NCBI GenBank assembly: GCA_016278505.1
Contig: JADQBQ010000005.1
Location: 36,771-100,770, forward strand
DNA length: 64,000 bases
Source of the DNA: Clostridiales bacterium
Lineage (GTDB): Bacteria; Bacillota; Desulfotomaculia; Desulfotomaculales; VENG01
Direction: 5' to 3'
Shown here: piece by piece, positions 4,544-36,994 of the stretch
How the letters are laid out: each line of letters opens with the position of its first letter
Position numbering within the stretch: the stretch's first letter is position 1
The notes under the pieces: model-generated
What the model was told of the DNA's origin: nothing
What the model saw: only the letters and a program-made list of their open reading frames with translations
The model's database searches: none
Made by a program: the position numbers and the translations under genes

Positions 4544-4621
4544 ATTATCACTTCCTTGATTTTAGTGTTCTCTAATTGACGCGGTATCTCCTTCTGTAGG
4601 CACAAACCGTTTTCTCTGTCT

Positions 4622-4840
4622 AAACTCCCATGAACCATATACACAAACTAGCATGGAAAAACTACATTTTCGTGAAAGAAAGACTTCATAGGTCCAACAC
4701 TAAAAAAGAAAGGGCAATTGTTGACGGGATTGACGTGATTCTCGGGATAGAGATTAAAAACAAAGAGAAAGGAAAAGGCAAACACATTAGACAGGATTAC
4801 AGGATTCGCAGGATAAGGGATTTAAAGATATCGGTTAAAA
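4622..4840. repeat. dispersed non-coding repeat, copy A
   Basis: About 200 bp aligns with 23207..23407 (aaactcccatgaacc.tatacacaaactag...gggcaatt.ttgacgggatt...aggcaaacaca..agacaggatt...ggatttaaagata), with two short indels. Confidence 0.8.
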
Positions 4841-4921
4841 ATATAACAAAACCGCCGAAATAAATTAATGCTAATAAATATTATATGCAAAGAAATAATG
4901 AGGAAAACAAGCAAAGCTAAA

Positions 4922-5065
4922 AATCCTGTTGATCCTGTTAATCCTGTCGTAAAAAAAATGTTTGCCTCAAAGCCCCACATGCAAAGCCTTTTATCCCGCT
5001 TATTCCATTGATCCCGTCATAACCCACATGACCCATATACACAAACTAGTACGAAAAACTACATT
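4922..5065. repeat. partial, rearranged copy of the same repeat (inverted body plus direct head)
   Basis: 4922-5019 is a diverged reverse complement of the body at ~4735-4830 (caggatt repeats, aggcaaaca, cgggat). 5027-5065 repeats the head catga.ccatatacacaaactag.a.gaaaaactacatt in direct orientation. Confidence 0.6.
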
Positions 5066-7820: not shown

Positions 7821-7843
7821 AAAAAAACCGCCATTTCAGGCGG
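7821..7843 (-). terminator. intrinsic terminator after tctB copy 1
   Basis: ccgcc/ggcgg stem. The A7 run on the + strand gives a U-run on the minus strand. Confidence 0.5.
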
Positions 7844-7862: not shown

Positions 7863-8309
7863 CTACCCGCCGAAAACAATACCAACGGGAAGCGGTACTA
7901 AAAATGCATAGTTGAAGACACCGTAGAAAACTGCGGTTATCAGTGAAGCAATGACCACCGACTTTACAGGAGATACTTTTTTTGTGTTATCTAAAAGTTT
8001 AAAGAATACAGCCAGGAATAACAGGCTGGCCAAAGCAAAGCCGATGAGGATAATGGCACCAACGTAGGCTATTACACCTATTATCATCGGTATTAGCCTT
8101 TTTGCTTCTACGCCAGCGAAGGCCGGTTCAATGTTTTTCTTGATTAAGCTTTGAATTAACTGGATACCGCTAAAAAGTGCGAGAACAATTATGATTATTC
8201 TGGGGAAAAAGCCACCCATTTCACTGAGCCCGGACCCTTCACTCCAAAATATCCCACTGATGATCAAGATAATTGCTGCTGATATAATGTCTTTATTAAG
8301 CATTAGCAT
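7863..8309 (-). CDS. tctB: tripartite tricarboxylate transporter small membrane subunit (TctB), copy 1
   Basis: 148 aa, 4 TM, overlapping the tctA stop. Protein is identical to 15672..16118. Confidence 0.8.
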   Translation of the reverse strand: MLMLNKDIISAAIILIISGIFWSEGSGLSEMGGFFPRIIIIVLALFSGIQLIQSLIKKNIEPAFAGVEAKRLIPMIIGVIAYVGAIILIGFALASLLFLAVFFKLLDNTKKVSPVKSVVIASLITAVFYGVFNYAFLVPLPVGIVFGG

Positions 8310-10798
8310 CTGCCTCCTTGTCAGGAGTTTTGTTGCGTAGGTTGGAGATTAACGGCCAGCCGGCAGATACCAGACAAAGTAAAATCAATATGATAGAAAG
8401 TGGGCGTGTGAAGAATACTTCAAACATGCTGCCTGCTGATTTACCCATTAACATGGACTGTACCAGTCCATTTTCCGCTATGGGGCCTAGAATTAGGCCT
8501 AATACTATGGGCCCGGGGTGAAAACCGGCTTTTTTAGTTACATAACCAACTAAGCCGAATAGGATCATGATTATTACGTCTACAATGTTGTTTCTGATGG
8601 CATAGGAGCCGATTACTGTCATAAATACAACCATGGGGGCTAAGTAGCTGACGGGCAGGTTAATTAGTTTGGCTACATGGCGTGCCCCGTAGAAAGCCAT
8701 CACTCCCATGACTATATTGGCTACAATGAGTGAAAACAGGAAGGTGTAGGTTATGTCTCCATAGTTTATATATAGTTCCGGACCGGGTCTCATACCCTGG
8801 AGCATCAATGCACCCAGTAAAATGGCTGCCGGGGCCGCTCCCGGTATGCCCAGTGTCATTAACGGTACTAGTGAGCCGCCCACTTCTGCGTTGTTGGCTG
8901 CTTCTGAGGCTGCTACTCCGTCAATGTTGCCTTTGCCAAATTCTTTGGGCTTTTTGGACCAGCGGACTGCTTCGTTGTAAGATACCAGACCGGCAATGTT
9001 ACCGCCGGCACCGGGAACTATGCCTACAAAGGCTCCGATTACAGCTGATCTTAAAAGTAATATTGGTTTTTTAATTAAATCTGAGATTATTCCTTTAGCT
9101 ACACCTTTTTGTGGTTTGTAGTTGATGCTGTCATGTTGGCTAAATTTCTTTTCTATCATGCTTAAGACTTCGGGAATACAGAAAAATCCTATTAATACTA
9201 CAATCAATGATAAGCCGGCCTGCAGTTGGTAAAGACCAAAGGTGAAGCGCATTTCTCCGCCCAGGGGGGCTATACCGATTTGACTTAGTAAAAGACCTAT
9301 CCCACCACCTATCAAGCCTTTTAACATTGAACCGGAGGCTAAGGTGGCAATAATGGTCAGCCCGAAGATGGATAGCCAGAAGTATTCCGGCGGGCCGAAT
9401 TTTAATGCAATTGATGCTAGGGGCGGGGATAGCAGCAGGAGTACAACTGCTCCGATTACACCTCCCACAGCGGAGCTGAAGGCCGCGGTGACCAGGGCAT
9501 GCTCTGCTTTTCCTTTTTTTGTTAAAGGAAAGCCGTCAAAGGTGGTGGCAATGGCTGATGGTGTCCCCGGTGTGTTGACCAGGATGGCTGCGATACAGCC
9601 GCCATAAATAGCACCTACGTATATGCCGCCCAGGCCCATTAATGCCGGTACTGCGTCCATGGTGAAGGTAAAGGGTACTAAAAGGGCCATGGCCATGGTG
9701 GCGGTTAACCCGGGTAAGGCACCTACTATTATTCCAAAGCCTACGCCTATTGCCATGATTAAAAAGTTGGTTGGTTGAGCTATATTGCTTAGTGCTGCTA
9801 TAAAGTCGGCTGGCATGGCAAGTCTCCTCTCCATGATACATGGTGGTTCCCGGGAGACTTAGCCCGGGAACCTTTAATGTTATTTTTTATTTTGACTCTG
9901 CTTGTACTTTTTCTAATATTGCACTGTACTTGTCTTTCATTTCATTTATATATTGCTTCGATTCTTCTGCACCCATGGCCAGTGGCAGGAAGCCTTCTTC
10001 TTTCATTTGGGCGCGTATTTCTTCATCTTTGGCAATTTCTAAAAATGCTTTTTCTAGTTTTTCTATGATTCTCTTGTCTGTTTCCGGCGGTACTGCAACA
10101 CCGCGGTCAATACTGGCTGTCATGTCTATATCTTGTTCCATAAAGGTTTTTACATCCGGCAGGGGCTCAAATCTTTCTTTGGAACCAATGGCCAGTATCT
10201 TCATTTTGTCCTGGTGCTGTACCAGGTCGTTGGAGTTGGCCAACAGTGCATCTACGTGACCGCCTAAGTAGCTTTGCACTGATGGTGCTGCTCCCTGGGA
10301 CGGTACGTATTGGAATTCAGCACCGGTTTTGTCTTGCAGCTGCATTAAGGTGATGTGGTGTCCGGAATAGGTGCCGGAACCACCTACTGTGATTTGACCG
10401 GGCTTGGCCTTGCCTGCTTCAATGAATTCATCCAGTGTGTTATAGGGTGAGTCCGGCTGTACTGCCAGGCCGATGGGTGTTCCCTGAAATAGTGCCACCG
10501 GGTTTACCTGGTCTGTTTCGTAGCCGGCATTTTCTCTGGCCAGCGGCTGCAGTATAATGTGCGGTATATTCATCCCGGTCAGGTAATAGCCGTCGGGATC
10601 TTTCCTTACCAGCTCTGACCAGCCTACTGCTCCGCCACCACCGGGTTTGTTTTCGATTACTACATTGACTCCCAGCTTTTCTTCCAGTGGTTTTTGCTGC
10701 CTGCGGGCTTCTAGGTCTGACTGACCGCCTGGATTAAACGGCACTACATATTTTATTGTCTTGGTGGGGTAGTTAAATTCGTCTTTTCCTTCTTCCCC
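7882..10798. repeat. ~2.9 kb apparently base-identical segment, copy 1 (partner 15691..18607)
   Basis: Constant offset of 7809 bp. All sense and antisense ORFs in the track are identical between copies in several frames. Mismatches appear at 7863-7881 and from 10799 onward. Confidence 0.85.
8296..9834 (-). CDS. tctA: tripartite tricarboxylate transporter large permease (TctA), copy 1
   Basis: 512 aa polytopic protein with typical TctA motifs (GALPGLTATMAMALLVP, GIVPGAGG). Identical to 16105..17643. Confidence 0.9.
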   Translation of the reverse strand: MERRLAMPADFIAALSNIAQPTNFLIMAIGVGFGIIVGALPGLTATMAMALLVPFTFTMDAVPALMGLGGIYVGAIYGGCIAAILVNTPGTPSAIATTFDGFPLTKKGKAEHALVTAAFSSAVGGVIGAVVLLLLSPPLASIALKFGPPEYFWLSIFGLTIIATLASGSMLKGLIGGGIGLLLSQIGIAPLGGEMRFTFGLYQLQAGLSLIVVLIGFFCIPEVLSMIEKKFSQHDSINYKPQKGVAKGIISDLIKKPILLLRSAVIGAFVGIVPGAGGNIAGLVSYNEAVRWSKKPKEFGKGNIDGVAASEAANNAEVGGSLVPLMTLGIPGAAPAAILLGALMLQGMRPGPELYINYGDITYTFLFSLIVANIVMGVMAFYGARHVAKLINLPVSYLAPMVVFMTVIGSYAIRNNIVDVIIMILFGLVGYVTKKAGFHPGPIVLGLILGPIAENGLVQSMLMGKSAGSMFEVFFTRPLSIILILLCLVSAGWPLISNLRNKTPDKEADANA

Positions 10799-10876
10799 GT
10801 TCTGTGCGCATCCCGCAAAGACTCCGACTATTAACAGCAGTGATAGGATTGAGGCAAATACCTTAATTTTTTTCAT
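9887..10876 (-). CDS. tctC: tripartite tricarboxylate transporter substrate-binding lipoprotein (TctC/Bug family), copy 1
   Basis: 329 aa with lipobox FAGC and Bug-family character (VVPFNPGGQSD, NKPGGGG). The mature part is identical to copy 2. Confidence 0.9.
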   Translation of the reverse strand: MKKIKVFASILSLLLIVGVFAGCAQNGEEGKDEFNYPTKTIKYVVPFNPGGQSDLEARRQQKPLEEKLGVNVVIENKPGGGGAVGWSELVRKDPDGYYLTGMNIPHIILQPLARENAGYETDQVNPVALFQGTPIGLAVQPDSPYNTLDEFIEAGKAKPGQITVGGSGTYSGHHITLMQLQDKTGAEFQYVPSQGAAPSVQSYLGGHVDALLANSNDLVQHQDKMKILAIGSKERFEPLPDVKTFMEQDIDMTASIDRGVAVPPETDKRIIEKLEKAFLEIAKDEEIRAQMKEEGFLPLAMGAEESKQYINEMKDKYSAILEKVQAESK

Positions 10877-11056
10877 TCTCCTTGACCCTCCTGTAATTTA
10901 ATGCTAAAATTAAGTGTTGGTAAGACTTACTAAAATCGTACAAATAAAAAGTGATTATATATTGTTTTTTAATATAAGAATTTAAATATTTTACCAAAAT
11001 GGTTTATAGGTAACGGGAGAAGTTTCACCCTTCCCCCGTTACCTGTTTTTTTTCAA

Positions 11057-12217
11057 TTAAGCAGAACGATAAAGCTTTGTTAGTACATACTCAACGTGTC
11101 CTAATACTTCAGCCCTGGTCATACGCCCGTTAACCGTGCGCATCATCATTTCCATCAGGGCATCCCCGGCCTGTTCCAAATTCATTTCCATGCGCAACAT
11201 GCCGCTGAGATTAACATCTATATGTTCACCCATAGTTTCTGCTGTTAACGGATTAGCCGTTAACTTAATCACCGGAACCACAGGGTTACCTACAATATTG
11301 CCCTGACCGGTGGGGAAAAAGTGCAACACCGAACCGGCGGCACCCCACAATGTAACAGCCTCGGCGGCAGCAGAAGAGGTATCCATGTACCATAAGCCTT
11401 TTCCGGTGGGAGCTTCAGCAGGTTTCAGGACACCCACATACTTACATTTGCCGATTTTCTGGATATTACCCATAGCTTTTTCTTCAATGGTAGTTAGGCC
11501 ACCGGTAATATTCCCCTTTGTAGGCTGAGAACCGGAAAGGTCCACTCCCTGATCCAAAATAAATTGGTTATATTCACTCCAGGTTTTATAGAATTGTTCA
11601 CCGACTTCCGGAGTTGCACCCCGGCTCTTTACAATATCTTCCCCGCCGGTAATTTCTGAAGTTTCACCGAACATAACAGTGGCGTTCATTTCCACCAAGC
11701 GTTCCACCGCCTTACCGACGGTAGGATTGGAAGCCAGTCCGGAAGTGGTATCAGACTCTCCACACTTGACAGATACCACCAGTTCGTCCACGCTGCACTC
11801 TTCGCGCATCAGTTCAGTGGCCCATTGTACATATTCCATTGCTTTACGTGAAGCAGCTTCCACGGTTTTAAATTCCCCGCTCCGTTCAATGGCAAATCCG
11901 ATAACCGGCTTTCCGGTCTTGGCAATACCTTCAACAATGACATTTGTCCATTCAGGCTCAATGCCTATTACCACAACAGCTGCAATGTTTGGGTTACTAC
12001 CGGTTCCAATCAAGGTCCGGAAATATAAGTCCAGGTCCTCACCAAACTGCAGTCTTCCATAACCATGAGGAATAACCATGGTTCCCTTAACATTGTTGGC
12101 AACCTTTTCACTGGCTGAGTTTGACAAATCATCCAAAGGCAATATCAAAACGTTATTTCTAATCCCTACTCGTCCGTTTTCCCGCCTGTAACCCCAAAAC
12201 TTAGGAACATTCATCAT
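11057..12217 (-). CDS. UxaA-family lyase/dehydratase large subunit (SuyB-like)
   Basis: 386 aa. The N-terminus [19 protein letters not shown] and GESDTTSGL are typical of the UxaA C-terminal domain. It abuts the SAF-domain ORF. Confidence 0.8.
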
Positions 12218-12496
12218 TTACCACCTCGCAGTTTTCAAATTATGAGTGTGTACATGTTCACCTACGGCAATATCGTGAGTCGTAACACCAATGGGGAAAC
12301 CGTATTTTATAATCTGGTTACCCTTGGTTACATCCACCAGAGCAATTTTATGACCCAATAGAATATCGCTATTGGAAACTACTTCAATTTCGTTTCCTTC
12401 TTCCATAAAATACCCTTTCACCGTTTCTCCGGCCTTAATATCGGTAACGGCTACCCCAACAGAATCATTTTTGTCGTGGACAAGAAACTTAACCAT
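12218..12496 (-). CDS. SAF-domain small subunit of split UxaA-family enzyme (SuyA-like)
   Basis: 92 aa. [14 protein letters not shown]...GHKIAL... matches the SAF/UxaA N-terminal pattern. Its stop abuts the large-subunit start. Confidence 0.7.
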   Translation of the reverse strand: MVKFLVHDKNDSVGVAVTDIKAGETVKGYFMEEGNEIEVVSNSDILLGHKIALVDVTKGNQIIKYGFPIGVTTHDIAVGEHVHTHNLKTARW

Positions 12497-12601
12497 TATA
12501 ATCCTCCTCTCTAAAATATAAGTAGTTTATGTTTTATAATTTACCCTCACGGGGCAAAATGAAATAACCAGTTAGTTAACAAAATCTTTTACAACTTTTT
12601 T

Positions 12602-13654
12602 CTATAACGGGGCTACGCTGAATTGGAGGGCCAGTTCATTCAGCTCATCCAATACCGGCTGGGAAACAGGAATTCCATCCCGTTTGCGCTCAAGAAACTT
12701 ATTGGTGCGGCGCTCCCCGGGAATGAAGATTTCTTCTACTCCTGTGGCCTTGGGTGAACCCTTAACTTCATTGACCATATGATCCAGGCGACTAATAAAC
12801 ATGTCCAGAGGCATCAATTTATTTATATCCAAGGTTATAAAAAAATGACCGATATCCACTGGCTCGGTACTGTCATCGTAAATCCAACCCACCCTGGGTC
12901 CATAAGCCGACCCGCTCAAGATACCGGACATAATTTCTACAGCGAGCGCCAAGGCATAACCTTTCGGGCCGGCCATGGGGAGAACAGCCCCTTCCAGGGC
13001 TGCCTGGGCATCTGTAGTGGCCCTGCCTTCAGCATCTATGGCCCAGCCCTCCGGGATAGACCTTCCTTCCTTGGCGGCCGTAATAATGTTGCCCCGGGCC
13101 ACCGTGCTAGAGGACATATCAATTACTACCGGCTGATTTCTACCAGGAAAAGCGAAGGCAATAGGATTTGTACCAAAATAGGCCTTTTTTCCACCCCATG
13201 GGGTGATACCCGCAGGAGTATTGGTAAATGCCATACCCAACATACCGCTGGAAGCAGCCATTTTGCAATAATATGAAGATGCGCCGTAATGGTTGCTGTG
13301 TTTAGCAGCTACCGCTCCCATACCTGTTTCCCCGGCCAGCTCAATTGCCACCTGCATAGAGCGCACACCCACCAGCTGTCCCAACCCGTTATCGCCATCT
13401 ACTGTGGCCAGGCCGGGAGCGGTACGCTCAACCTTCATGTCCGCCTGAGAGTTAATACGACCATTTTGTATCCTGGACAAGTATATTGGTAGACGACTAA
13501 TACCGTGGGTGTCCAGACCTTCCAGACTGGTGTCAACCAGCACATCAGCCACTACAGCAGCATCTTCTTCCGGTACACCGGCACCCTGAATAAGATTCTT
13601 ACAAAATTTAACAAGCTTATCAGCTGAATATTGGGGCATTAAGGTCTCCTCCAA
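12602..13654 (-). CDS. Ldh_2-family (malate/L-lactate/sulfolactate-type) NAD(P)H dehydrogenase
   Basis: 350 aa with Ldh_2 character (GLDTHGISRLPIY, HSNHYGASSYY, GTNPIAFAFP). Confidence 0.85.
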   Translation of the reverse strand: MEETLMPQYSADKLVKFCKNLIQGAGVPEEDAAVVADVLVDTSLEGLDTHGISRLPIYLSRIQNGRINSQADMKVERTAPGLATVDGDNGLGQLVGVRSMQVAIELAGETGMGAVAAKHSNHYGASSYYCKMAASSGMLGMAFTNTPAGITPWGGKKAYFGTNPIAFAFPGRNQPVVIDMSSSTVARGNIITAAKEGRSIPEGWAIDAEGRATTDAQAALEGAVLPMAGPKGYALALAVEIMSGILSGSAYGPRVGWIYDDSTEPVDIGHFFITLDINKLMPLDMFISRLDHMVNEVKGSPKATGVEEIFIPGERRTNKFLERKRDGIPVSQPVLDELNELALQFSVAPL

Positions 13655-13675
13655 ATTTTAATAATCTATTTTTCT

Positions 13676-14617
13676 TTAGCTCACGCAACAATGTGAAGCT
13701 TGTCCAGCCAGCACTTTGGAAACCTCTCGCGCCACCAGTACCGAGGTGCGAACCTGTGCTTCTTCGGTCAGGCCGGCAATATGCGGGCTGAGAATTATAT
13801 TATCCAATTCTTTAAGGGGTGATTCCCCAGGGGGCTCCTGGGCTAATACATCCAGAGCCGCACCGGCAATTTGCTTGGATTTTAGCGCGTTAAACAGAGC
13901 ATCTTCATTTATAATGCCACCGCGCGAAGTATTTATGATACAGGCAGTTGATTTCATAATAGACAGGCTGTCTTTATTTATAATATTCCGCGTTTTTTTA
14001 TTCAGTGGTACATGCAAACTTATAAAGTCGGAATCGGAAAGTACCTGCTCCAAATCGGTAAGGCACACACCAAATTCCGTGCAGGCCACCTCGTAAGGAG
14101 GCAAAAATGGATCAAAACCTATTACATTCATACCAAACGCCCTTGTCCGGGCCGCCAGACGGCTACCTATTTCTCCAACCCCCACTAGACCCAGCGTTTT
14201 ACCATATAACTCGGTCAATGTGAATGTTCGGCGGTTCCAATTACCTGATTTTACATCACTGGTTGCCCAGGCCAGCTGCCTCGAAAAAGTAAACATTGCC
14301 GCAAAAACATATTCAACCACCGAAATTGCATTGGCGTTGCGGGCCACCACCACGTCAACATTTGAATCCTTACAGACACTTAGATCGATATTATCCAGAC
14401 CCACACCAAGACGTCCCAACACTTTTAATTTTGGTGCCGCCATGAGGAACTCTTTGTCAACCTTGGTCTGGTTCCTTACTATGACTGCGTCACTATCCGC
14501 TATTTCCAGCAGTAATTTATCACTCTGCCAGAGGTTCGGGTCATAAACAACTTGGCCCAATTCCCTTAGAATTTCCAATCCTTCTTCCCATATTAATTCC
14601 GTTACAACAATTTTCAT
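13676..14617 (-). CDS. D-isomer-specific 2-hydroxyacid dehydrogenase (PGDH-like)
   Basis: 313 aa with the GLVGVGEIGS Rossmann motif and the catalytic region SLHVPL...NTSRGG...SPHIAG. Confidence 0.85.
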   Translation of the reverse strand: MKIVVTELIWEEGLEILRELGQVVYDPNLWQSDKLLLEIADSDAVIVRNQTKVDKEFLMAAPKLKVLGRLGVGLDNIDLSVCKDSNVDVVVARNANAISVVEYVFAAMFTFSRQLAWATSDVKSGNWNRRTFTLTELYGKTLGLVGVGEIGSRLAARTRAFGMNVIGFDPFLPPYEVACTEFGVCLTDLEQVLSDSDFISLHVPLNKKTRNIINKDSLSIMKSTACIINTSRGGIINEDALFNALKSKQIAGAALDVLAQEPPGESPLKELDNIILSPHIAGLTEEAQVRTSVLVAREVSKVLAGQASHCCVS

Positions 14618-14686
14618 ACTATCGCTCCTATAATTATGTAAATTTAAACCAGTTGTAGTTATATTAGGTCACTTTTCATAGGTATG

Positions 14687-14697
14687 TGGTAGTACCA
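14687..14697. promoter_or_regulatory. candidate GntR/FadR-type operator TGGTA-G-TACCA
   Basis: Perfect 5-1-5 palindrome in the divergent region between the catabolic operon and the GntR gene. It fits the generic t.GT.n.AC.a GntR operator shape. Confidence 0.35.
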
Positions 14698-14815
14698 TTG
14701 GTTACGGTTATTGTATGTATTAAACATGATTATGTCAACAGTTTTTATAAATTTATTTCGCGAGTGAAAAATATTATACAATAACTATTGTTTTATTAAG
14801 ACACTACTGGTATAT

Positions 14816-14826
14816 TGGTATTACCT
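14816..14826. promoter_or_regulatory. second candidate GntR-type operator tGGTA-T-TACCt
   Basis: GGTAtTACC palindrome about 50 nt upstream of the GntR start. Confidence 0.35.
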
Positions 14827-14873
14827 CATACGAGTAACCACAAAAACTCCCACTTATCGAAGTGGGATAAAAT

Positions 14874-15599
14874 ATGGAGAGGAAGAATAAGATGTTTGAG
14901 AAAATTGGACGCAATGCCAGTCTAAAAAATCAAGTGGCAGAATACATAAAGAACCTCATCAAGAACGGCAAGCTTAAACCTGGTGACCGCTTGCCAACCG
15001 AAAGAGAAATGGCTGAAAAATTCGGAGTTAGCCGCACCGTGATCAGGGATGCGGTTAAAACTTTATCCGGTGTGGGCATCTTAAAGGTAAAGCACGGCCT
15101 TGGTATTTTTGTGGCTAAAGTAGATGTGGATATTATTGCGCGCCAGTTATCCAGTTTATTATTTAACGAAAGTGATACCGTGGATAACTTATTTGAGGTG
15201 CGAATGGAATTGGAGACTGTCGCAGCAGGCTGGGCTGCCGAACGCTGTACTGAAGAAGCCCGGGCTAAAATTTCGCAATTTACAAAGGAAAGTCAAGCTT
15301 TATTAAATTCGAACGGTGAAAGTGATAGTTTCCAGCAATATGATCAGGAGTTCCACTTATTGGTTTCGGAAATGACCGGCAACCCGGTTGTAGTTCGTTT
15401 AATGCGCAGCATGCTTGATCTTTTGGAGGAAGCCCGCTCCCACACATTACATATTCCCGGGAGGTTTGATTTATCGGTGCAGGAACATATAAAGGTTTTA
15501 GAGGCAATATATAAGGGTAACACTGATCAGGCTAAAAGCGCTATGCATGATCACTTGTTAAGTGTACTAAATTCTATTAAGGAAAGCAGAGATCACTAG
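14874..15599 (+). CDS. GntR-family transcriptional regulator, FadR subfamily (FCD domain)
   Basis: N-terminal wHTH (LPTEREMAEKFGVSRTVIRDAVKTL) followed by a helical FCD-like C-terminal domain. Confidence 0.85.
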   Translation: MERKNKMFEKIGRNASLKNQVAEYIKNLIKNGKLKPGDRLPTEREMAEKFGVSRTVIRDAVKTLSGVGILKVKHGLGIFVAKVDVDIIARQLSSLLFNESDTVDNLFEVRMELETVAAGWAAERCTEEARAKISQFTKESQALLNSNGESDSFQQYDQEFHLLVSEMTGNPVVVRLMRSMLDLLEEARSHTLHIPGRFDLSVQEHIKVLEAIYKGNTDQAKSAMHDHLLSVLNSIKESRDH

Positions 15600-15612
15600 G
15601 AGATATGATCTC

Positions 15613-15656
15613 AAAAAAAGGGATTTTACCCATAGAGGATAAAATCCCTTTTTTTT
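15613..15656. terminator. bidirectional intrinsic terminator
   Basis: gggatttta/taaaatccc stem flanked by an A-run and a T-run, between the convergent GntR gene and tctB copy 2. Confidence 0.75.
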
Positions 15657-15671
15657 GTGTGTTTTAATTAA

Positions 15672-16118
15672 TTAGCCGCCAAAAACAATGCCAACGGGAA
15701 GCGGTACTAAAAATGCATAGTTGAAGACACCGTAGAAAACTGCGGTTATCAGTGAAGCAATGACCACCGACTTTACAGGAGATACTTTTTTTGTGTTATC
15801 TAAAAGTTTAAAGAATACAGCCAGGAATAACAGGCTGGCCAAAGCAAAGCCGATGAGGATAATGGCACCAACGTAGGCTATTACACCTATTATCATCGGT
15901 ATTAGCCTTTTTGCTTCTACGCCAGCGAAGGCCGGTTCAATGTTTTTCTTGATTAAGCTTTGAATTAACTGGATACCGCTAAAAAGTGCGAGAACAATTA
16001 TGATTATTCTGGGGAAAAAGCCACCCATTTCACTGAGCCCGGACCCTTCACTCCAAAATATCCCACTGATGATCAAGATAATTGCTGCTGATATAATGTC
16101 TTTATTAAGCATTAGCAT
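15672..16118 (-). CDS. tctB: TctB, copy 2
   Basis: Protein identical to copy 1. Confidence 0.8.
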   Translation of the reverse strand: MLMLNKDIISAAIILIISGIFWSEGSGLSEMGGFFPRIIIIVLALFSGIQLIQSLIKKNIEPAFAGVEAKRLIPMIIGVIAYVGAIILIGFALASLLFLAVFFKLLDNTKKVSPVKSVVIASLITAVFYGVFNYAFLVPLPVGIVFGG

Positions 16119-18607
16119 CTGCCTCCTTGTCAGGAGTTTTGTTGCGTAGGTTGGAGATTAACGGCCAGCCGGCAGATACCAGACAAAGTAAAATCAATAT
16201 GATAGAAAGTGGGCGTGTGAAGAATACTTCAAACATGCTGCCTGCTGATTTACCCATTAACATGGACTGTACCAGTCCATTTTCCGCTATGGGGCCTAGA
16301 ATTAGGCCTAATACTATGGGCCCGGGGTGAAAACCGGCTTTTTTAGTTACATAACCAACTAAGCCGAATAGGATCATGATTATTACGTCTACAATGTTGT
16401 TTCTGATGGCATAGGAGCCGATTACTGTCATAAATACAACCATGGGGGCTAAGTAGCTGACGGGCAGGTTAATTAGTTTGGCTACATGGCGTGCCCCGTA
16501 GAAAGCCATCACTCCCATGACTATATTGGCTACAATGAGTGAAAACAGGAAGGTGTAGGTTATGTCTCCATAGTTTATATATAGTTCCGGACCGGGTCTC
16601 ATACCCTGGAGCATCAATGCACCCAGTAAAATGGCTGCCGGGGCCGCTCCCGGTATGCCCAGTGTCATTAACGGTACTAGTGAGCCGCCCACTTCTGCGT
16701 TGTTGGCTGCTTCTGAGGCTGCTACTCCGTCAATGTTGCCTTTGCCAAATTCTTTGGGCTTTTTGGACCAGCGGACTGCTTCGTTGTAAGATACCAGACC
16801 GGCAATGTTACCGCCGGCACCGGGAACTATGCCTACAAAGGCTCCGATTACAGCTGATCTTAAAAGTAATATTGGTTTTTTAATTAAATCTGAGATTATT
16901 CCTTTAGCTACACCTTTTTGTGGTTTGTAGTTGATGCTGTCATGTTGGCTAAATTTCTTTTCTATCATGCTTAAGACTTCGGGAATACAGAAAAATCCTA
17001 TTAATACTACAATCAATGATAAGCCGGCCTGCAGTTGGTAAAGACCAAAGGTGAAGCGCATTTCTCCGCCCAGGGGGGCTATACCGATTTGACTTAGTAA
17101 AAGACCTATCCCACCACCTATCAAGCCTTTTAACATTGAACCGGAGGCTAAGGTGGCAATAATGGTCAGCCCGAAGATGGATAGCCAGAAGTATTCCGGC
17201 GGGCCGAATTTTAATGCAATTGATGCTAGGGGCGGGGATAGCAGCAGGAGTACAACTGCTCCGATTACACCTCCCACAGCGGAGCTGAAGGCCGCGGTGA
17301 CCAGGGCATGCTCTGCTTTTCCTTTTTTTGTTAAAGGAAAGCCGTCAAAGGTGGTGGCAATGGCTGATGGTGTCCCCGGTGTGTTGACCAGGATGGCTGC
17401 GATACAGCCGCCATAAATAGCACCTACGTATATGCCGCCCAGGCCCATTAATGCCGGTACTGCGTCCATGGTGAAGGTAAAGGGTACTAAAAGGGCCATG
17501 GCCATGGTGGCGGTTAACCCGGGTAAGGCACCTACTATTATTCCAAAGCCTACGCCTATTGCCATGATTAAAAAGTTGGTTGGTTGAGCTATATTGCTTA
17601 GTGCTGCTATAAAGTCGGCTGGCATGGCAAGTCTCCTCTCCATGATACATGGTGGTTCCCGGGAGACTTAGCCCGGGAACCTTTAATGTTATTTTTTATT
17701 TTGACTCTGCTTGTACTTTTTCTAATATTGCACTGTACTTGTCTTTCATTTCATTTATATATTGCTTCGATTCTTCTGCACCCATGGCCAGTGGCAGGAA
17801 GCCTTCTTCTTTCATTTGGGCGCGTATTTCTTCATCTTTGGCAATTTCTAAAAATGCTTTTTCTAGTTTTTCTATGATTCTCTTGTCTGTTTCCGGCGGT
17901 ACTGCAACACCGCGGTCAATACTGGCTGTCATGTCTATATCTTGTTCCATAAAGGTTTTTACATCCGGCAGGGGCTCAAATCTTTCTTTGGAACCAATGG
18001 CCAGTATCTTCATTTTGTCCTGGTGCTGTACCAGGTCGTTGGAGTTGGCCAACAGTGCATCTACGTGACCGCCTAAGTAGCTTTGCACTGATGGTGCTGC
18101 TCCCTGGGACGGTACGTATTGGAATTCAGCACCGGTTTTGTCTTGCAGCTGCATTAAGGTGATGTGGTGTCCGGAATAGGTGCCGGAACCACCTACTGTG
18201 ATTTGACCGGGCTTGGCCTTGCCTGCTTCAATGAATTCATCCAGTGTGTTATAGGGTGAGTCCGGCTGTACTGCCAGGCCGATGGGTGTTCCCTGAAATA
18301 GTGCCACCGGGTTTACCTGGTCTGTTTCGTAGCCGGCATTTTCTCTGGCCAGCGGCTGCAGTATAATGTGCGGTATATTCATCCCGGTCAGGTAATAGCC
18401 GTCGGGATCTTTCCTTACCAGCTCTGACCAGCCTACTGCTCCGCCACCACCGGGTTTGTTTTCGATTACTACATTGACTCCCAGCTTTTCTTCCAGTGGT
18501 TTTTGCTGCCTGCGGGCTTCTAGGTCTGACTGACCGCCTGGATTAAACGGCACTACATATTTTATTGTCTTGGTGGGGTAGTTAAATTCGTCTTTTCCTT
18601 CTTCCCC
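15691..18607. repeat. ~2.9 kb apparently base-identical segment, copy 2
   Basis: See the partner at 7882..10798. Confidence 0.85.
16105..17643 (-). CDS. tctA: TctA, copy 2
   Basis: Protein identical to copy 1. Confidence 0.9.
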   Translation of the reverse strand: MERRLAMPADFIAALSNIAQPTNFLIMAIGVGFGIIVGALPGLTATMAMALLVPFTFTMDAVPALMGLGGIYVGAIYGGCIAAILVNTPGTPSAIATTFDGFPLTKKGKAEHALVTAAFSSAVGGVIGAVVLLLLSPPLASIALKFGPPEYFWLSIFGLTIIATLASGSMLKGLIGGGIGLLLSQIGIAPLGGEMRFTFGLYQLQAGLSLIVVLIGFFCIPEVLSMIEKKFSQHDSINYKPQKGVAKGIISDLIKKPILLLRSAVIGAFVGIVPGAGGNIAGLVSYNEAVRWSKKPKEFGKGNIDGVAASEAANNAEVGGSLVPLMTLGIPGAAPAAILLGALMLQGMRPGPELYINYGDITYTFLFSLIVANIVMGVMAFYGARHVAKLINLPVSYLAPMVVFMTVIGSYAIRNNIVDVIIMILFGLVGYVTKKAGFHPGPIVLGLILGPIAENGLVQSMLMGKSAGSMFEVFFTRPLSIILILLCLVSAGWPLISNLRNKTPDKEADANA

Positions 18608-18679
18608 ATTTTGTGCGCATCCCACTACAACTGATATTGCCAATATTAATACTAAAACCAATGGGCAAAATCGTTTCAA
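17696..18679 (-). CDS. tctC: TctC/Bug-family substrate-binding lipoprotein, copy 2
   Basis: 327 aa. It differs from copy 1 only in the signal peptide (lipobox VVGC). Confidence 0.9.
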   Translation of the reverse strand: MKRFCPLVLVLILAISVVVGCAQNGEEGKDEFNYPTKTIKYVVPFNPGGQSDLEARRQQKPLEEKLGVNVVIENKPGGGGAVGWSELVRKDPDGYYLTGMNIPHIILQPLARENAGYETDQVNPVALFQGTPIGLAVQPDSPYNTLDEFIEAGKAKPGQITVGGSGTYSGHHITLMQLQDKTGAEFQYVPSQGAAPSVQSYLGGHVDALLANSNDLVQHQDKMKILAIGSKERFEPLPDVKTFMEQDIDMTASIDRGVAVPPETDKRIIEKLEKAFLEIAKDEEIRAQMKEEGFLPLAMGAEESKQYINEMKDKYSAILEKVQAESK

Positions 18680-18819: not shown

Positions 18820-19989
18820 CTAAGCGCTGGGATACAATTTAGTCATGATGAACTCTTTATGCCCAAGAATTTCCGCACTCATCATACGACCGTTACATGC
18901 CCTTAACATCATATCCATCAATTTATCTCCCGCGCCCTCTAAATCCATTTCACGGCGCAATAAACCGGTAAGATCTACATCGATATGTTCGGACATGGTG
19001 GCGACTGTAATTGGGTTGGCACACAATTTAACCACCGGGATTACCGGATTACCTACAATATTTCCTTGCCCGGTGGGGAATAAATGCACCACCGCTCCTC
19101 CTGCGGCACACAGTGTAACCATTTCTGCCGCGGCAGAAGATGAATTCATAAAATGCAGCCCCGTGCCTTTGGGTGCCTCTGCCTCTTTTAGGGCACTTTT
19201 TACCATCGCTTTTCTGCCCATTTTTTGGATATTGCCTAACGCTTTTTCTTCAATAGTAGTTAAACCACCGGCAATATTACCCTGTGTTGGCTGAGATCCT
19301 AAAAGGTCAACTCCTTGACCCTCAATCAGATTCATGTAATCAGTATGCATTTTCAAAAATGCTTCTTTTACTTCCGGAGTAGCACATCTTTCAGCAACAA
19401 TGTCTTCTCCACCTGTTATCTCTGAGGTTTCACCAAAGATTGCCGTACCACCCCATTCCACTACCCGGTCAACCACTACACCTACAGTGGGATTTGACGC
19501 TAAGCCGGAAGTTGTATCCGACTCACCACATTTAACACTAACAGTGAGCTCCGAACCCCTGCATTCCACACGCTTTAGTTCGGTAGCATACTGCACGAAT
19601 TCATGAGCCTTGCGTGCAGCTGTTTCAATTGTTTTATACTGGCCGTTACGCTCAATGGCAAAACCAGCTACCGGCTTCCCGGTCTTAGCTATTCCATCCA
19701 CTATTTTGTTTGTCCAATTAGGCTCAATACCAATAACTACACAGGCAGCAATGTTTGGATTGCACCCGGTTCCAATCATGGTACGGAAAAATAGGTCTAA
19801 ATCTTCACCAAACTGCAAACGCCCATATGCGTGGGGCAAAGGTAATGTGCCTTGCACTATGCTGGCAACACCCTCAACAGCAGCGTTTGAAATGTCATCT
19901 AAAGCTAAAATTGCCACATGGTTCCTTACTCCTACACGCCCATTTTCACGCTTGTAACCGTAAAATATTGGTTCAGTCATTTTTACCAC
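18820..19989 (-). CDS. UxaA-family large subunit, diverged paralog of 11057..12217
   Basis: 389 aa, colinear with the other copy but with many substitutions ([19 protein letters not shown]...). Confidence 0.8.
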
Positions 19990-20267
19990 CTCAATGTCCT
20001 AAGATTGTGGGTATGCATATGCTCTCCTTTTTTGACAGCTTGGCTGGCTTTGCCGATTACCACGTTATATTTCAATACTTTGGCACCTTGATCAAGATCA
20101 TAAAGAGCAATCTTATGACCTAAAGGGATGTCATTTTGCGACTTTACGGTAACCGTTGAATTATCTTCCATCACCCAGCCACTAACATCTTCACCGGCTT
20201 TGATGTCTGTAACGGCCACCCCCACGTGATCTTGTTTATCGTGGACAAAAAAGTTCGTTTGCGCCAT
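19983..20267 (-). CDS. SAF-domain small subunit, diverged paralog of 12218..12496
   Basis: 94 aa with the pattern [13 protein letters not shown]...GHKIAL. It overlaps the large-subunit start by 7 nt. Confidence 0.7.
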
Positions 20268-20451
20268 ATATTATTGGCCTCCTCTCGAATATTTTTCTAC
20301 AAATAATATTATTATGTTACAATTCAACCTTTATTCATAAGCACCATGGTATTTTATTCCTAAATAAATTCCCTAACTTCTCCGTATAGTAATTCGTATC
20401 AGAGAAAAACTTGTTTAAAGATATATAAATTATAAGGAGGAAATAATCCTG

Positions 20452-20968: not shown

Positions 20969-23218
20969 GTGAAATTAATGAACAGTGCCAAAAACACCTT
21001 CCCGGTTTTAAGCAGTGTATTTGTAGTTTCTACATCTCTCATTATGTATGAAATCATTTTAACCAGGTTGTATTCTGCCGTAATGTGGTATCACTTTGTA
21101 TCCCTGGCCGTTTCCATTGCCTTGTTTTCCCTTGCACTTGGAGGAATTCTAGTCTACCGGTATCCTTTAAAAGAAAAAAAGAAACGGCAAAATCTTAAGC
21201 TGAAAACTTGGGAGCGATCAAGTCTGACCGGGCTGGCTGTTTCCATTTTAATACTTACTCTGGTTTTTTATCGCGTGCCTTATCACAATGATTTATATAT
21301 GATTTATATTCTGGCGGGCGGAATACCCTTTGTTTTCGGAGGAATATACCTGTCGATATCTTTTTTTAACTTTCCGTCCCAAAGCTCTTACATCTATTTC
21401 GCTGACTTAATTGGTTCGGCAGCAGGCGGCGCTCTGATTATGAAACTATTAAATGACTATAGTATCATGCGTACTGTTGTCATTATAAGTTTGGTTTTGC
21501 TTGTAGTGATGGCAATAAGATTTTTGCCGGGTAAAAAGAGGTTGTTGGGATCAGTACTAACGTCATTTATGTTTATAATAGCGGTCTTTTTTGGCGGTAT
21601 TATAGATGAGTGGTCCGTAAACTTTAAAGCCTACCAGGGTGAACCTAAAATGTTAGGAATGTTATCAGGAAACCCGCAAAGCATATTTACCACGTGGGAT
21701 TCACTGGCCAAGACCGATGTGATAGAAACAGATAAAGATAACAATAAAATTGTCTTGGTAGACGGGGCTGCAAGTTCATACATGCTGCCTTTTAACGGGA
21801 ACTACCAGGAAGTGAGTAATCTTAGAAAGGAAACGGGCTATCTTCCTTTTGCCGTGGGCGAGCGGGACAATGCACTAATAATCGGTCCCGGGGGAGGCAA
21901 AGATATTCTCCTTGCCCACCTCGCCGGTGTACATGACATCACTGCAGTGGAGATCAACCCCGGTACAGTCCGGGCTGCCAGGAAATTTAAAGATTTTAAC
22001 GGTAATATATACGACCGCCCGGGAACCAAAACCCATGTTATTGATGGTCGAACGTTTATCAGCCAGGATAAAAATAAATATGACATAATTTACTTATCCC
22101 TTGTTATGACAAAAGCTTCGGAGATGCAAGAAAACTATATTTATACAGCTGAAGCCTTCGAGGAGTATTTGAACCATTTAACTGAAGAAGGTAAACTAGC
22201 ATTTTTACTTCACGGTGAATCGGATTTCTCCAAAGCACTGGCTACGGCAATTAAGGTGCTGGATAAGCGTGGCATATCCCGTGCTGAAATAGCTAATCAC
22301 ATTGCCATCGTGAACACTCAGAAGGATAATGACAAAGAATTGGAAGCCGCCGGCCAACATGGCGAAAAACTATACTATCCCTTATTAATTGTCAAGAATA
22401 CTCCTTTTAAACAAACTGAAGCTAATGCCCTGCTTGCCCTCTCACAGCAAGGCTCAAGCAATCCTGTATACTTACCGCAAAAAGGGACAGAGCTCAAATT
22501 GCCTTCCAATGATGATTTAGAGAGTTGGGTAGTTAATGATAATAAACCGTTTTTCTACAATAGTTCAAACGGTGCACCTAAAAGCGTTTGGGCCATATTG
22601 ATTGTCATGACATTGGGCGGGCTAATCTTTATTTATCCTCCCCTCAGACACAGAAGCAAAGAGGTCAAGCATTATGGCTCATATTTTGCGCTGCTGGGTA
22701 TTTCTTTTATGCTTATAGAGATACCTCTACTCCAAAATTTCATACTTTTTCTGGGTCGTCCCACTCTAACATTCTCCACGGTAATTGCTTCGCTGCTTTT
22801 TGCCGGTGGACTGGGCAGTTTCGCCACCTCATTTTTTAAAAGGGATAATACACCTGTGCTTGCCGGGATTGGCATTGCCCTTATGGTACTGATTATGAAT
22901 CTAAAACTCGATGATTTCCTGGCCGGCTACCAGGGCGTACCCATTTTAAATAAAATCATGATCGTTTTCCTTGTCTTACTTCCACTGGGCTTTCTAATGG
23001 GAATTCCCTTTCCCGTCGGCATTAAGAGAATGGAAGAAAAAAATCGAAATTTTGTTCCGGTAATGTGGGGAATAAACGGGTGGATGTCTGTAGTAGGATC
23101 TGTGGGTGCACTGGTTTTAGCCATGCATTTTGGGTTTACTCAGACACTTTACATGGGAGCAATAGGATATTTATTGTTTGCTGTATTCACCTTAAAAGTC
23201 ATGACAAAACTCCCATGA
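20969..23218 (+). CDS. fused polytopic membrane / spermidine-synthase-like (class I methyltransferase fold) protein
   Basis: 749 aa. TM blocks flank a central domain with LIIGPGGGKDIL...VEINPG...DIIYLS. The last codons and the stop lie inside dispersed-repeat copy B. Confidence 0.7.
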   Translation: MKLMNSAKNTFPVLSSVFVVSTSLIMYEIILTRLYSAVMWYHFVSLAVSIALFSLALGGILVYRYPLKEKKKRQNLKLKTWERSSLTGLAVSILILTLVFYRVPYHNDLYMIYILAGGIPFVFGGIYLSISFFNFPSQSSYIYFADLIGSAAGGALIMKLLNDYSIMRTVVIISLVLLVVMAIRFLPGKKRLLGSVLTSFMFIIAVFFGGIIDEWSVNFKAYQGEPKMLGMLSGNPQSIFTTWDSLAKTDVIETDKDNNKIVLVDGAASSYMLPFNGNYQEVSNLRKETGYLPFAVGERDNALIIGPGGGKDILLAHLAGVHDITAVEINPGTVRAARKFKDFNGNIYDRPGTKTHVIDGRTFISQDKNKYDIIYLSLVMTKASEMQENYIYTAEAFEEYLNHLTEEGKLAFLLHGESDFSKALATAIKVLDKRGISRAEIANHIAIVNTQKDNDKELEAAGQHGEKLYYPLLIVKNTPFKQTEANALLALSQQGSSNPVYLPQKGTELKLPSNDDLESWVVNDNKPFFYNSSNGAPKSVWAILIVMTLGGLIFIYPPLRHRSKEVKHYGSYFALLGISFMLIEIPLLQNFILFLGRPTLTFSTVIASLLFAGGLGSFATSFFKRDNTPVLAGIGIALMVLIMNLKLDDFLAGYQGVPILNKIMIVFLVLLPLGFLMGIPFPVGIKRMEEKNRNFVPVMWGINGWMSVVGSVGALVLAMHFGFTQTLYMGAIGYLLFAVFTLKVMTKLP

Positions 23219-23407
23219 ACCTTATACACAAACTAGTATGAGAAAACTACATTTTTATGAAAGAAAGACTCCATAGTGCCAACACTAAAAAAGAAAGGGC
23301 AATTTTTGACGGGATTCTCGGGATAGAGATTAAAATAAAGAGAAAAGAAAAGGCAAACACATGAGACAGGATTCGAGGATAAAGGATTTAAAGATAGCGT
23401 TTTAAAA
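23207..23407. repeat. dispersed non-coding repeat, copy B
   Basis: Aligns with 4622..4840. The short reading frame seen in copy A is broken here after 8 codons. Confidence 0.8.
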
Positions 23408-25946: not shown

Positions 25947-26126
25947 TTGATACCGAGGACAGCCGAACTACTCATAGATATAGAACACGAGCGTCACAAG
26001 CTACATGAGAAGGCAAAAAAAAATCCCCGTGACATAGGAATACTACTGGAAACAAGCAAGAGACTGGATAAATTAATTATAGAATATCAAAAGTTAACCA
26101 ATTATTCTCATAGACAGGAGGAATAA
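25947..26126 (+). CDS. Spo0E-family sporulation regulatory phosphatase-like protein (59 aa, TTG start)
   Basis: aggagg SD 10 nt upstream of the TTG. IDIEHERHKLHEKA...LLETSKRLDKLIIEYQKL matches the Spo0E helical hairpin pattern. Missing from the track because it is under 60 aa. Confidence 0.55.
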   Translation: MIPRTAELLIDIEHERHKLHEKAKKNPRDIGILLETSKRLDKLIIEYQKLTNYSHRQEE

Positions 26127-26161
26127 ATCTTGATGTTAATTCCCCGAACCGGATTCGGCCT

Positions 26162-26248
26162 TGGAAATACTTAAGAAGCGCTATGCTACAGGAGAATTAA
26201 CCTTAGAAGATTATCGAGCAATGGCGGAGGAAATACGAGGCGGGTAAA
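26162..26248 (+). pseudogene. SHOCT-domain remnant
   Basis: LEILKKRYATGELTLEDYRAMAEEIRGG resembles the C-terminus of the SHOCT protein at 55161..55433 (LLNRRYASGELTTEEYIAMREEIRGY). The open frame is only ~35 codons with no membrane part. Confidence 0.4.
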
Positions 26249-26387
26249 AAAGGCATCCTTTGAGATGTCTTTTTTTGCAGCAAGATATAATGGGAAAACC
26301 AGTTCCCAATTATACCGGAATAAGGTAAAATAATGTAGAAGAATTGAACAGGCAGCTGTGATTAACATGTTTAATGAGAGGTGTACC

Positions 26388-26867
26388 ATGAAACCCGTAA
26401 GATTAAACGACATTGCAGAACATTTGGATTGCATTATGGATGGCTGGAAGATGTACTATAACAAGAAAACCGGCAAAATTACAGAGGTACAAGTTGAATA
26501 CTTAGGTATTGCCGAGGAGTCAGAAGAAGAGGACGATTTTAGTGGATATGATCAATGGGAGCAGGAAGCAATCAAAGAAGCCATTGACATCATAGAAAAT
26601 GAGGATGATTATATTAGGCTGCCAGACGAATATGACATCCATGAATACAGCATTATGCAGGATTTTTGTTACTCGATAGAGGATGAACAGCTAAATAACA
26701 AGCTATGTAACGCTATATCCGGCAGGGGTGCATTTAGGCGATTTAAAGATGCAATGATACGGTACGATTTGGAAGATAGCTGGTATGCCTATAAGTACCA
26801 ATCATTACGCAAAATAGTGCAGGATTGGTGCAAATTTAATAATATACCTTGGATACCCGGTACTTAA
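26388..26867 (+). CDS. UPF0158-family protein
   Basis: The acidic middle region and the C-terminal GRGAFRRFKD......W..Y are typical of UPF0158. SD gagg precedes the ATG at 26388. Confidence 0.55.
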   Translation: MKPVRLNDIAEHLDCIMDGWKMYYNKKTGKITEVQVEYLGIAEESEEEDDFSGYDQWEQEAIKEAIDIIENEDDYIRLPDEYDIHEYSIMQDFCYSIEDEQLNNKLCNAISGRGAFRRFKDAMIRYDLEDSWYAYKYQSLRKIVQDWCKFNNIPWIPGT

Positions 26868-26880
26868 AGATTCGTGGAGC

Positions 26881-26919
26881 AAATGCTAACCAATTTTAAA
26901 AAATTGGTTAGCATTTTTT
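26881..26919 (+). terminator. intrinsic terminator
   Basis: aatgctaaccaatt / aattggttagcatt stem followed by a T-run. Confidence 0.8.
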
Positions 26920-26977
26920 GTTTTTTCCATTTACAACTTTGCATGATTAGTGTAAAAATACACAGTTCAATGAAAAA

Positions 26978-27091
26978 ATGCCCTGTACAACTGTATTGCT
27001 ATCTATTACTTCAGCCTGCCCATATAATTGCAGTTACTGTTACCAGAAACTTGACCGGGGCAGGGATATGGCAATCATAACCCTTTTTTAA
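26978..27091 (+). pseudogene. 5' fragment of a radical SAM gene
   Basis: MPCTTVLLSITSACPYNCSYCYQKLDRGRD carries the CxxxCxxC cluster motif. The frame stops after 37 codons, about 85 nt before the IS256 end. Confidence 0.5.
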
Positions 27092-27176
27092 TTTTGTCGG
27101 TCATATAACTTGGCAAAACACCAATCAAAGGTGTAATTTGTTATGAGCGAAATCCTTAAAGATGGGAGTATGCAGA

Positions 27177-36876: not shown

Positions 36877-36884
36877 TAATTTTT
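36745..36884. repeat. 140-bp direct repeat, copy 1 (partner 37834..37973)
   Basis: aagaagtgggg.aaagggaaaaagat...gcgcgctaataattttt aligns at a constant offset of 1089 bp with a few mismatches. Confidence 0.8.
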
Positions 36885-36994
36885 GATTGTTTTTCTACGG
36901 TCATGGGATATATTTCCCGTACTTCGCCGTATAATACCTTCGGGCCAAGAACCGAGGCGGTGACTTTCACCCTCTGGCCCAATTTCACCCCACC
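36884..36994 (-). pseudogene. internal fragment of a HlyD/MacA-like adaptor gene
   Basis: About 110 bp aligns with 38356..38467, roughly 85 percent identical by eye. The peptides are KLGQRVKVTASVLGPKVLYGEVREIYP versus KLGQRVKITAPVLGPKVLYGEVGEIYP. Confidence 0.6.

Follow-up and report, generated by a model that had tools for sequence, protein, structure and literature searches.

Two paralogous clusters share an identical transporter block

The 64,000-nucleotide (nt) stretch analyzed here (positions 36,771 to 100,770 of contig JADQBQ010000005.1, assembly GCA_016278505.1; hereafter the window) carries two paralogous gene clusters, each encoding a two-subunit enzyme of the UxaA family and a tripartite tricarboxylate transporter (TTT), with all genes of both clusters on the minus strand. 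In cluster 1, the transporter genes follow the order tctC-tctA-tctB: tctC1 (9887 to 10876) encodes a lipoprotein substrate-binding protein of 329 amino acids (aa), tctA1 (8296 to 9816) the large membrane subunit of 506 aa, and tctB1 (7863 to 8309) the small membrane subunit of 148 aa. All three products scored above their Pfam gathering scores (TctC, 163 bits with a cut-off of 27; TctA, 487 bits; TctB, 60 bits). Their counterparts in cluster 2 are tctC2 (17696 to 18679, 327 aa), tctA2 (16105 to 17625), and tctB2 (15672 to 16118). The longest open reading frame (ORF) for TctA is 512 aa (reaching 9834), against the 506 aa called in relatives (the 506-aa form is P0241); TctB is 148 aa by ORF and 146 aa in the source record.

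Next to the transporter genes, the UxaA-family enzyme of cluster 1 (11057 to 12496) consists of an SAF small subunit (12218 to 12496) and a large subunit (11057 to 12217), with matches to Pfam SAF, GD_AH_second, and GD_AH_C and with 76 to 80% identity to its orthologs in loci L001 to L009. Its paralog in cluster 2 (18820 to 20267) has the same composition, with the small subunit at 19983 to 20267 and the large subunit at 18820 to 19980 (386 aa as called; the longest large-subunit ORF is 389 aa). Two dehydrogenase genes are found only in cluster 1: one of the Ldh_2 family (12602 to 13654; ComC-like; Pfam Ldh_2, 428 bits) and one encoding a D-isomer-specific 2-hydroxyacid dehydrogenase (13676 to 14617; Pfam 2-Hacid_dh and 2-Hacid_dh_C), a candidate SlcC-like partner. 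The gene order of cluster 1 is conserved among loci from GTDB species representatives.

Exact string comparison showed that positions 7882 to 10798 and 15691 to 18607 are identical over 2917 nt, with 0 mismatches at a constant offset of 7809, and that the two copies are in direct orientation. On either side of the block, identity at this offset drops to the background of about 25%. The block comprises tctB without its last 6 codons, all of tctA, and tctC from codon 27 onward. TctA1 and TctA2 are 100% identical, as are TctB1 and TctB2, and TctC1 and TctC2 differ only in the signal peptide, their mature parts being the same. The GC content of the block resembles that of its surroundings. The adjoining UxaA-family genes of the two clusters retain 65% nt identity (69% aa for the large subunit, 54% aa for the small). 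An earlier sequence-only reading of the window had described a base-identical block of about 2.9 kb, covering tctB, tctA, and the mature part of tctC, beside diverged UxaA-family genes; the coordinates and the self-comparison agree with this description.

The block ends inside genes, within short stretches of diverged homology

At the 3′ edge, the last 6 codons and stop of tctB1 (7863 to 7881) are homologous to 15672 to 15690 with 4 differences, as the sequence-only reading had stated in placing this end within the last 6 tctB codons. The differences are synonymous at 7881 and 7872, synonymous in the last Gly codon at 7866, and a TAG versus TAA stop at 7863; they leave the TctB protein unchanged, and no homology extends beyond this edge. 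At the 5′ edge lie the tctC1 signal peptide and lipobox (10799 to 10876; Cys23 at 10810 to 10808) and, in copy 2, the tctC2 signal peptide (18608 to 18679), which has a TTG start. The first differences are synonymous third positions in Asn26 (10799) and Gln25 (10802), three and two codons past the lipobox cysteine, and homology reaches back to the lipobox. Farther upstream, the hydrophobic parts of the two signal peptides are diverged and separated by an indel, and the intergenic regions before them are unrelated. The identity thus does not stop inside the TctC signal peptide, as had been claimed, but 3 to 4 codons past the lipobox cysteine. The tctC2 type of signal peptide also occurs beside the uxaL2-type gene (the cluster 2 large-subunit type) in the relatives L081, L083, and L084. 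That the block is flanked by short tracts of old, diverged homology points to gene conversion between paralogs and is unlike the insertion of a fresh copy.

Transporter genes were probably homogenized separately in the window and a close relative

To judge by its proteins, the source organism is an uncultured Peptococcaceae-like Firmicute: in a scan of GTDB species representatives the closest TctA, from Peptococcaceae bacterium BRH_c8a, was 82% identical, and no close relative was found there. Closer relatives came from metagenome-assembled genomes (MAGs). Locus L090 of MAG GCA_009711705.1 carries both clusters in the window's gene order at about 97.5% identity to the window, including a homolog of the cluster 2 large subunit at 99% identity. 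In a more distant relative, MAG GCA_009711615.1, the large subunit of the cluster 2 type is 89% identical; here the two clusters are on separate contigs, cluster 2 at the end of one of 303 kb (L084) and cluster 1 on one of 5.2 kb (L098). A third strain is represented by a Logan contig from SRR34857728 (L083) that carries the copy-2 flank and signal peptide. A literature search on the MAG accessions and run identifiers found no mention of them. Below, W1 and W2 denote copies 1 and 2 of the window, and R1 and R2 those of the close relative GCA_009711705.1.

The tct copies of the close relative are likewise identical to each other, over 2914 nt (L090, 9037 to 11950; offset 7818). In a four-copy alignment, 81 sites inside the block had W1 equal to W2 but different from R1 and R2, which again agreed with each other, and 0 sites showed the orthologous pattern. 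At the edges and in 150-nt flanks the relationship is the reverse: 111 sites had W1 equal to R1 but different from W2 and R2, the latter two being equal. Synteny is conserved in both L090 and L081, and the flanks follow the orthologous pattern. The paralogs are therefore closer within each genome (0 differences in the window, 0 over 2914 nt in the relative) than to their orthologs, from which they differ by 2.8%, a divergence similar to the 1.2 to 2.5% of the flanking genes. Had there been only one conversion, predating the split of the two lineages, the differences would be singletons rather than shared sites, so homogenization took place after the split and in both lineages. With 0 differences within the window against 81 between the lineages, we calculate (Poisson upper bound, 3/81) that no more than roughly 4% of the time since the split has passed since the window's lineage was last homogenized.

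The tract ends differ between the two genomes, the identical run of the relative being displaced by 15 to 18 nt from the window's at both ends. At three positions of the 5′ edge (18595, 18591, and 18590), the alleles of W2 are those of copy 1, but R2 has retained those of copy 2 (GEGEF versus GKDEF in the protein), and at 10802 and 10799 the paralog-specific alleles are retained in both genomes. At the 3′ edge, R1 has copy-2 alleles at 7881 and 7872, where W1 keeps its own and is thus the odd one out, and at 7866 and 7863 both genomes again retain paralog-specific alleles. Transfer accordingly ran from copy 1 to copy 2 at the window's 5′ edge and from copy 2 to copy 1 at the relative's 3′ edge. 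With unique sequence less than a read length away, these sites are reliable whatever befell the interior of the block in assembly, and they show separate events with opposite donor direction. In L083, copy 2 has copy-1 alleles farther 5′, even at two sites where W2 and R2 keep theirs. The interior of L083 mixes alleles like those of the window, alleles like those of the relative, and private ones, and the contig runs 1.3 kb into the block unbroken; in this strain the copies may differ, or only one copy may be present.

These site patterns in the relatives bear out the proposal of gene conversion or segmental replacement between old paralogs. The same proposal had called the event recent; the homogenization is recurrent, separate in each lineage, and variable in its tract ends rather than a single recent event. 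A comparison of mature TctC gave no indication of the donor, since proteins from a copy-1 context (L001) and a copy-2 context (L084) are both 79% identical to the window's.

More distant relatives point to an old duplication of the whole module

In the distant relative GCA_009711615.1, the two clusters are related at 73% nt identity in the dehydrogenase genes, 67% in the lyase (UxaA-family) genes, and 83% in tctC (86% aa), and the tctC-tctA spacers have no similarity to each other. The last 127 nt of both contigs, from the tctA ribosome-binding site onward, are 100% identical, which we infer to reflect contigs running into a collapsed repeat of a k = 127 assembly graph. The homolog search returned no TctA from this MAG. 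It appears without tctA and tctB, presumably because the contig of the collapsed repeat was left out in binning. Most probably tctA and tctB have also been homogenized in this organism and tctC has not. From these sequences, the converted extent thus appears to vary among lineages, with similarity rising toward tctA. The two TctC proteins of the distant relative share 86% identity, against 79% with TctC of the window, values that hint at an earlier divergence of the transporter genes before their replacement.

Both clusters of the distant relative (on L084 and L098) keep their own 2-hydroxyacid and Ldh_2 dehydrogenases, and cluster 2 of the window has neither. The ancestral duplicated unit was by this token the whole module, from which the window's cluster 2 lost the dehydrogenases. 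The sequence-only reading had set its explanation against an old tandem duplication. It was right that the identity is not mere retention, but an old whole-module duplication, still visible at 67 to 83% nt identity in the distant relative, is part of the history.

Still more distant are L086 and L087 (ENA contigs), in which the large subunit is 83% identical to the cluster 2 type and both lyase paralogs stand in one cluster. There, the cluster-2-type lyase adjoins a 240-aa protein of the nitrite/sulfite reductase family (NIR_SIR), and a single, unrelated TTT transporter is present (TctC, 35% identical). The unrelated transporter implies that these enzymes have changed transporter partners in the course of evolution.

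Recurrent gene conversion is the most probable origin of the identity

Taken together, the identity, the site patterns, and the differing edges are very probably the outcome of an old module duplication followed by recurrent gene conversion that homogenized the transporter genes. Under this explanation, a catabolic module of two dehydrogenases, a two-subunit UxaA/SuyAB-like lyase, and a tctC-tctA-tctB transporter would have been duplicated long ago, and its enzyme genes would then have diverged to about 65 to 73% nt identity. The transporter genes would have been overwritten repeatedly, one copy by the other, through non-reciprocal homologous recombination, most likely when breaks were repaired on the template of the paralog. 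Tract length would be limited by the region of high identity, contiguous tracts aborting where homology ends, so that tracts stop within a few nt of the decay of homology at the tctC lipobox and in the last tctB codons. The process would be ongoing and independent in each lineage, in keeping with the different tract ends and the opposite donor directions. The age of the duplication and the mechanism of recombination we infer, the latter from what is established for bacterial gene conversion, as in the tuf genes (PMC5485169). Because the repeats are direct, crossing-over between them would delete or amplify the 7809-bp unit without inverting it; of the deletion and inversion that had been proposed for this segment, only the former (or amplification) applies.

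Several observations weigh against this explanation or limit its reach, and most concern the assembly. A JGI metagenome contig of the window's own locus (Ga0326300_100026; L093/L094), a separate assembly, differs from the window at 2 of the 21,521 positions compared: 8115 and 15924, a synonymous GCT/GCC site in tctB that occupies the same place in both copies. The other allele is carried by the close relative and by two Logan contigs, and the site varies between C and T across Logan runs. This suggests that a single consensus was assembled for the repeat, or else that both copies carry the polymorphism. Collapsed-repeat behavior is also seen in a Logan contig from SRR4072255 (L095) that consists of exactly the 2917-nt block with 1 difference, in another (L082) that ends 30 nt (k − 1) into the relative's block, and in further Logan contigs internal to the block. 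When the segment between two direct repeats is unique, the assembly graph can be traversed consistently in one way only, and a single consensus can then supply both copies in the output; the block interior is probably one consensus written twice. At the 81 concerted sites, the comparison would then be between two consensus sequences, which could mask a few real differences between the copies. A further difficulty is that RecA-type recombination would work very inefficiently on sequences whose divergence equals that of the flanks, so that one must assume either that the transporter genes never diverged much or that there was a rare initial replacement. Continuous homogenization since the duplication and divergence followed by replacement both fit.

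The zero mismatches are in consequence a property of the assembled sequence, as is the copy number of the 7809-bp unit: the claim of perfect identity holds for the window as assembled, and near-identity is the safer statement for the organism's own copies, given that the two assemblies disagree at one site alone, which recurs in both copies. The expected assembly hazard is real, short-read contigs either breaking at the block edges or consisting of the block alone. How far could such artifacts replace gene conversion as an explanation? It is improbable that they do so altogether, the copies being in truth diverged, or each genome having one copy in a contig that mixes strains or represents a 7.8-kb circle. 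Such a scenario can draw on the same-site difference between the two assemblies, on contigs that break exactly at the block edges or contain nothing but the block, and on the break of GCA_009711615.1 at its own repeat with the 127-nt overlap. Graph collapse, however, requires near-identity: copies 35% diverged, like the flanking genes, would assemble apart, and the collapse caveat therefore does not rescue an explanation without conversion. Four distinct in-frame junctions and a unique middle segment (from the GntR gene to uxaL1, the cluster 1 large-subunit gene), which joins block end to block start, place the two block contexts on one molecule. Moreover, the arrangement is common to three assemblies (the window, the JGI contig, and GCA_009711705.1), and the edge alleles linked to unique flanks already show conversion. 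A milder form of the artifact, compatible with recurrent conversion, deserves more weight, although we lean against it: conversion was real, but a few interior differences, such as that at 8115/15924, were merged. In its favor, the only site that differs between the assemblies lies in the repeat and varies across Logan runs; a strain difference present in both copies could explain the polymorphism at 8115 equally well.

Histories without repeated conversion fare worse. Independent duplications of tctCBA into cluster 2 in each lineage, or a single ancestral conversion followed by ordinary divergence, we consider very improbable. In their favor, transporter content at this locus has changed over time, as is clear from L086 and L087, with both lyase paralogs beside one unrelated TTT transporter. 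Against independent duplication, gene order and flanks are conserved between the window and the close relative, with orthologous patterns right up to the block edges, and the copy-2 type of signal peptide common to L081, L083, and L084 indicates that this position already held a tctC. From a single ancestral event, singletons would be expected, not 81 shared sites with near-zero divergence within genomes. Almost no weight attaches to a mobile cassette or horizontally acquired element inserted twice. Nothing specific speaks for it, although transposases are encoded elsewhere in the window (27399 to 28616 and 33834 to 34595), and the block edges lie inside the tctC and tctB reading frames, fused in frame to diverged homologous sequence. 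No inverted repeats of at least 40 nt were found in the window, and neither flanking direct repeats nor a transposase were found at the block. On these grounds, with edges inside genes and GC content like that of the surroundings, we rejected a mobile-element origin.

A separate question is whether recurrent conversion is maintained by selection instead of being a neutral by-product, on the grounds that the membrane subunits of both operons, and in this lineage the binding protein too, would have to stay interchangeable. We regard this as unlikely. Selection of this kind might act through mixed complexes, or through two diverging lyases acting on the same imported sulfonate, with conversion tolerated in the transporter genes and selected against in the enzyme genes. 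If so, the converted extent (tctA and tctB only in GCA_009711615.1, tctCBA here) would track a shared substrate.

The clusters probably serve sulfolactate degradation

Gene content points to a probable sulfolactate degradation locus in which the UxaA-family enzyme of cluster 1 is probably a SuyAB-type sulfolactate sulfo-lyase. Large-subunit homologs at 67 to 69% identity are named (2R)-sulfolactate sulfo-lyase subunit beta or SuyB in JGI and UniRef, these names being annotation labels. Both paralogs have the two-subunit composition of the family, with a small SAF and a large GD_AH subunit, as in SuyAB. The best NCBIfam match of the Ldh_2 protein is L-sulfolactate dehydrogenase, at 313.6 bits and thus below the cut-off of 500. 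In a PDB sequence search, the large subunit matched only galactarate dehydratase 6u7l (E = 3e-37), and that search returned no solved SuyB. The substrate of the TTT transporter would follow from its neighboring genes alone.

Sulfolactate clusters described in the literature combine a TTT importer (SlcHFG) with two dehydrogenases, SlcC and ComC, and with the SuyAB lyase (PMC10507020). For Desulfovibrio sp. DF1, SuyAB has been demonstrated, and candidate suyB genes have been noted in sulfate/sulfite-reducing Firmicutes (PMC6278857). The content of cluster 1 agrees with the slcHFG-slcC-comC/suyAB architecture in having a TTT importer and a second dehydrogenase. The parts that it has in common with the clusters of Taurinivorans muris and Chromohalobacter salexigens (PMC10507020) are a TTT transporter, a UxaA-family lyase of two subunits, and a pair of dehydrogenases, one of them of the Ldh_2/ComC type. 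Unlike the published slc/suyAB clusters, the window has two lyase paralogs and an Ldh_2 protein below the NCBIfam equivalog cut-off, and its assignment is made from sequence.

A regulator gene of the GntR/FCD type (14874 to 15599, plus strand; Pfam GntR and FCD) lies between the clusters and is divergent from cluster 1, an arrangement also present in L001, L005, and L008. Upstream of cluster 1 is a promoter-like site (14710 to 14738, minus strand; TTGACA-17-TACAAT, 11/12 matches), its function being predicted from its letters. Just downstream of it (14697 to 14687, minus strand) is the perfect palindrome TGGTACTACCA, which we take to resemble GntR operators of the FadR/PdhR type. In a search for a site common to both clusters, only the palindrome ACCATGGT was found upstream of cluster 2 (20340 to 20350). 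Its layout differs from that of TGGTACTACCA, and the two operons may not share a regulator. The operons also end differently, tctB1 being followed by a terminator-like hairpin with CCGCCTGAAATGGCGG and a T run (7828 to 7843, minus strand) and tctB2 by another with AAAGGGATTTTA...TAAAATCCCTTT and a T run (15613 to 15651, minus strand). The latter was read by eye, as its loop exceeds the limit of the hairpin scanner used for the tctB1 site.

Other features of the window

A tripartite ATP-independent periplasmic (TRAP) transporter (DctQ and DctM, 159 to 2021) lies a few kb from the TTT operons and represents a second organic-acid importer family in their neighborhood; the close relative GCA_009711705.1 also has DctP beside it. 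A repeated element of about 190 nt, 81 to 90% identical among its copies, occurs at 4617 to 4805, 5016 to 5058, and 23202 to 23380, upstream of a major facilitator superfamily transporter gene and in the convergent gap after a 749-aa spermine-synthase-like membrane protein. A lysine-rich ORF of 77 aa (4630 to 4863) lies in one of the copies. The element had no Rfam match, and an Rfam search of the whole window returned no matches. The transposases at 27399 to 28616 and 33834 to 34595 belong to the Mutator/IS256 family and an IS200-like type, respectively. Between the window and GCA_009711705.1 there was no alignment around 26081 to 27626. Short direct repeats (84 to 97%) were detected near 36.7 to 38.5 kb (36745 to 37004 versus 37834 to 37973 and 38356 to 38476).

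Comparison with known cases and implications

Concerted evolution of duplicated operons for membrane complexes is already known, and the TTT transporter described here is a new example. In Nitrosomonadales, the concerted evolution of amoCAB and haoAB copies has been attributed to recurrent gene conversion (PMC6053082). As there, the operon copies are near-identical within a genome, differ between species, and are syntenic, and their products form a complex. Unlike amoCAB and haoAB, only the transporter part is homogenized here, the enzyme genes of the same transcription units having diverged to 65 to 73%; the time depth shown is also shallow, from strain to genus level. The main text of that survey makes no mention of transporters. 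For tufA and tufB of Salmonella, conversion tracts were contiguous and bounded by the ends of homology, and most repeated genes are 2 to 4 kb (PMC5485169). The window shares with this system a non-reciprocal transfer between two chromosomal copies, and its 2.9-kb block fits the 2- to 4-kb range. The tuf copies are inverted, far apart, and were measured experimentally, whereas the tct copies are direct, 7.8 kb apart, and point to conversion through sequence comparison.

The attractive feature of this locus is that homogenization is confined to part of a duplicated operon, leaving the enzyme genes free to diverge, and the differing tract ends of several strains could be used for studying how far conversion reaches into decaying homology. 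The main practical message is the hazard to short-read assemblies of this uncultured Peptococcaceae-like group, which are broken or misled by a direct repeat of 2.9 kb; one MAG has apparently lost tctA and tctB to it. The 7.8-kb unit, which comprises the regulator, both dehydrogenases, one lyase, and one transporter copy, would also be prone to deletion or amplification. Finally, the window adds a candidate locus for the utilization of sulfolactate, an organosulfonate, with two lyase paralogs in anaerobic Firmicutes.

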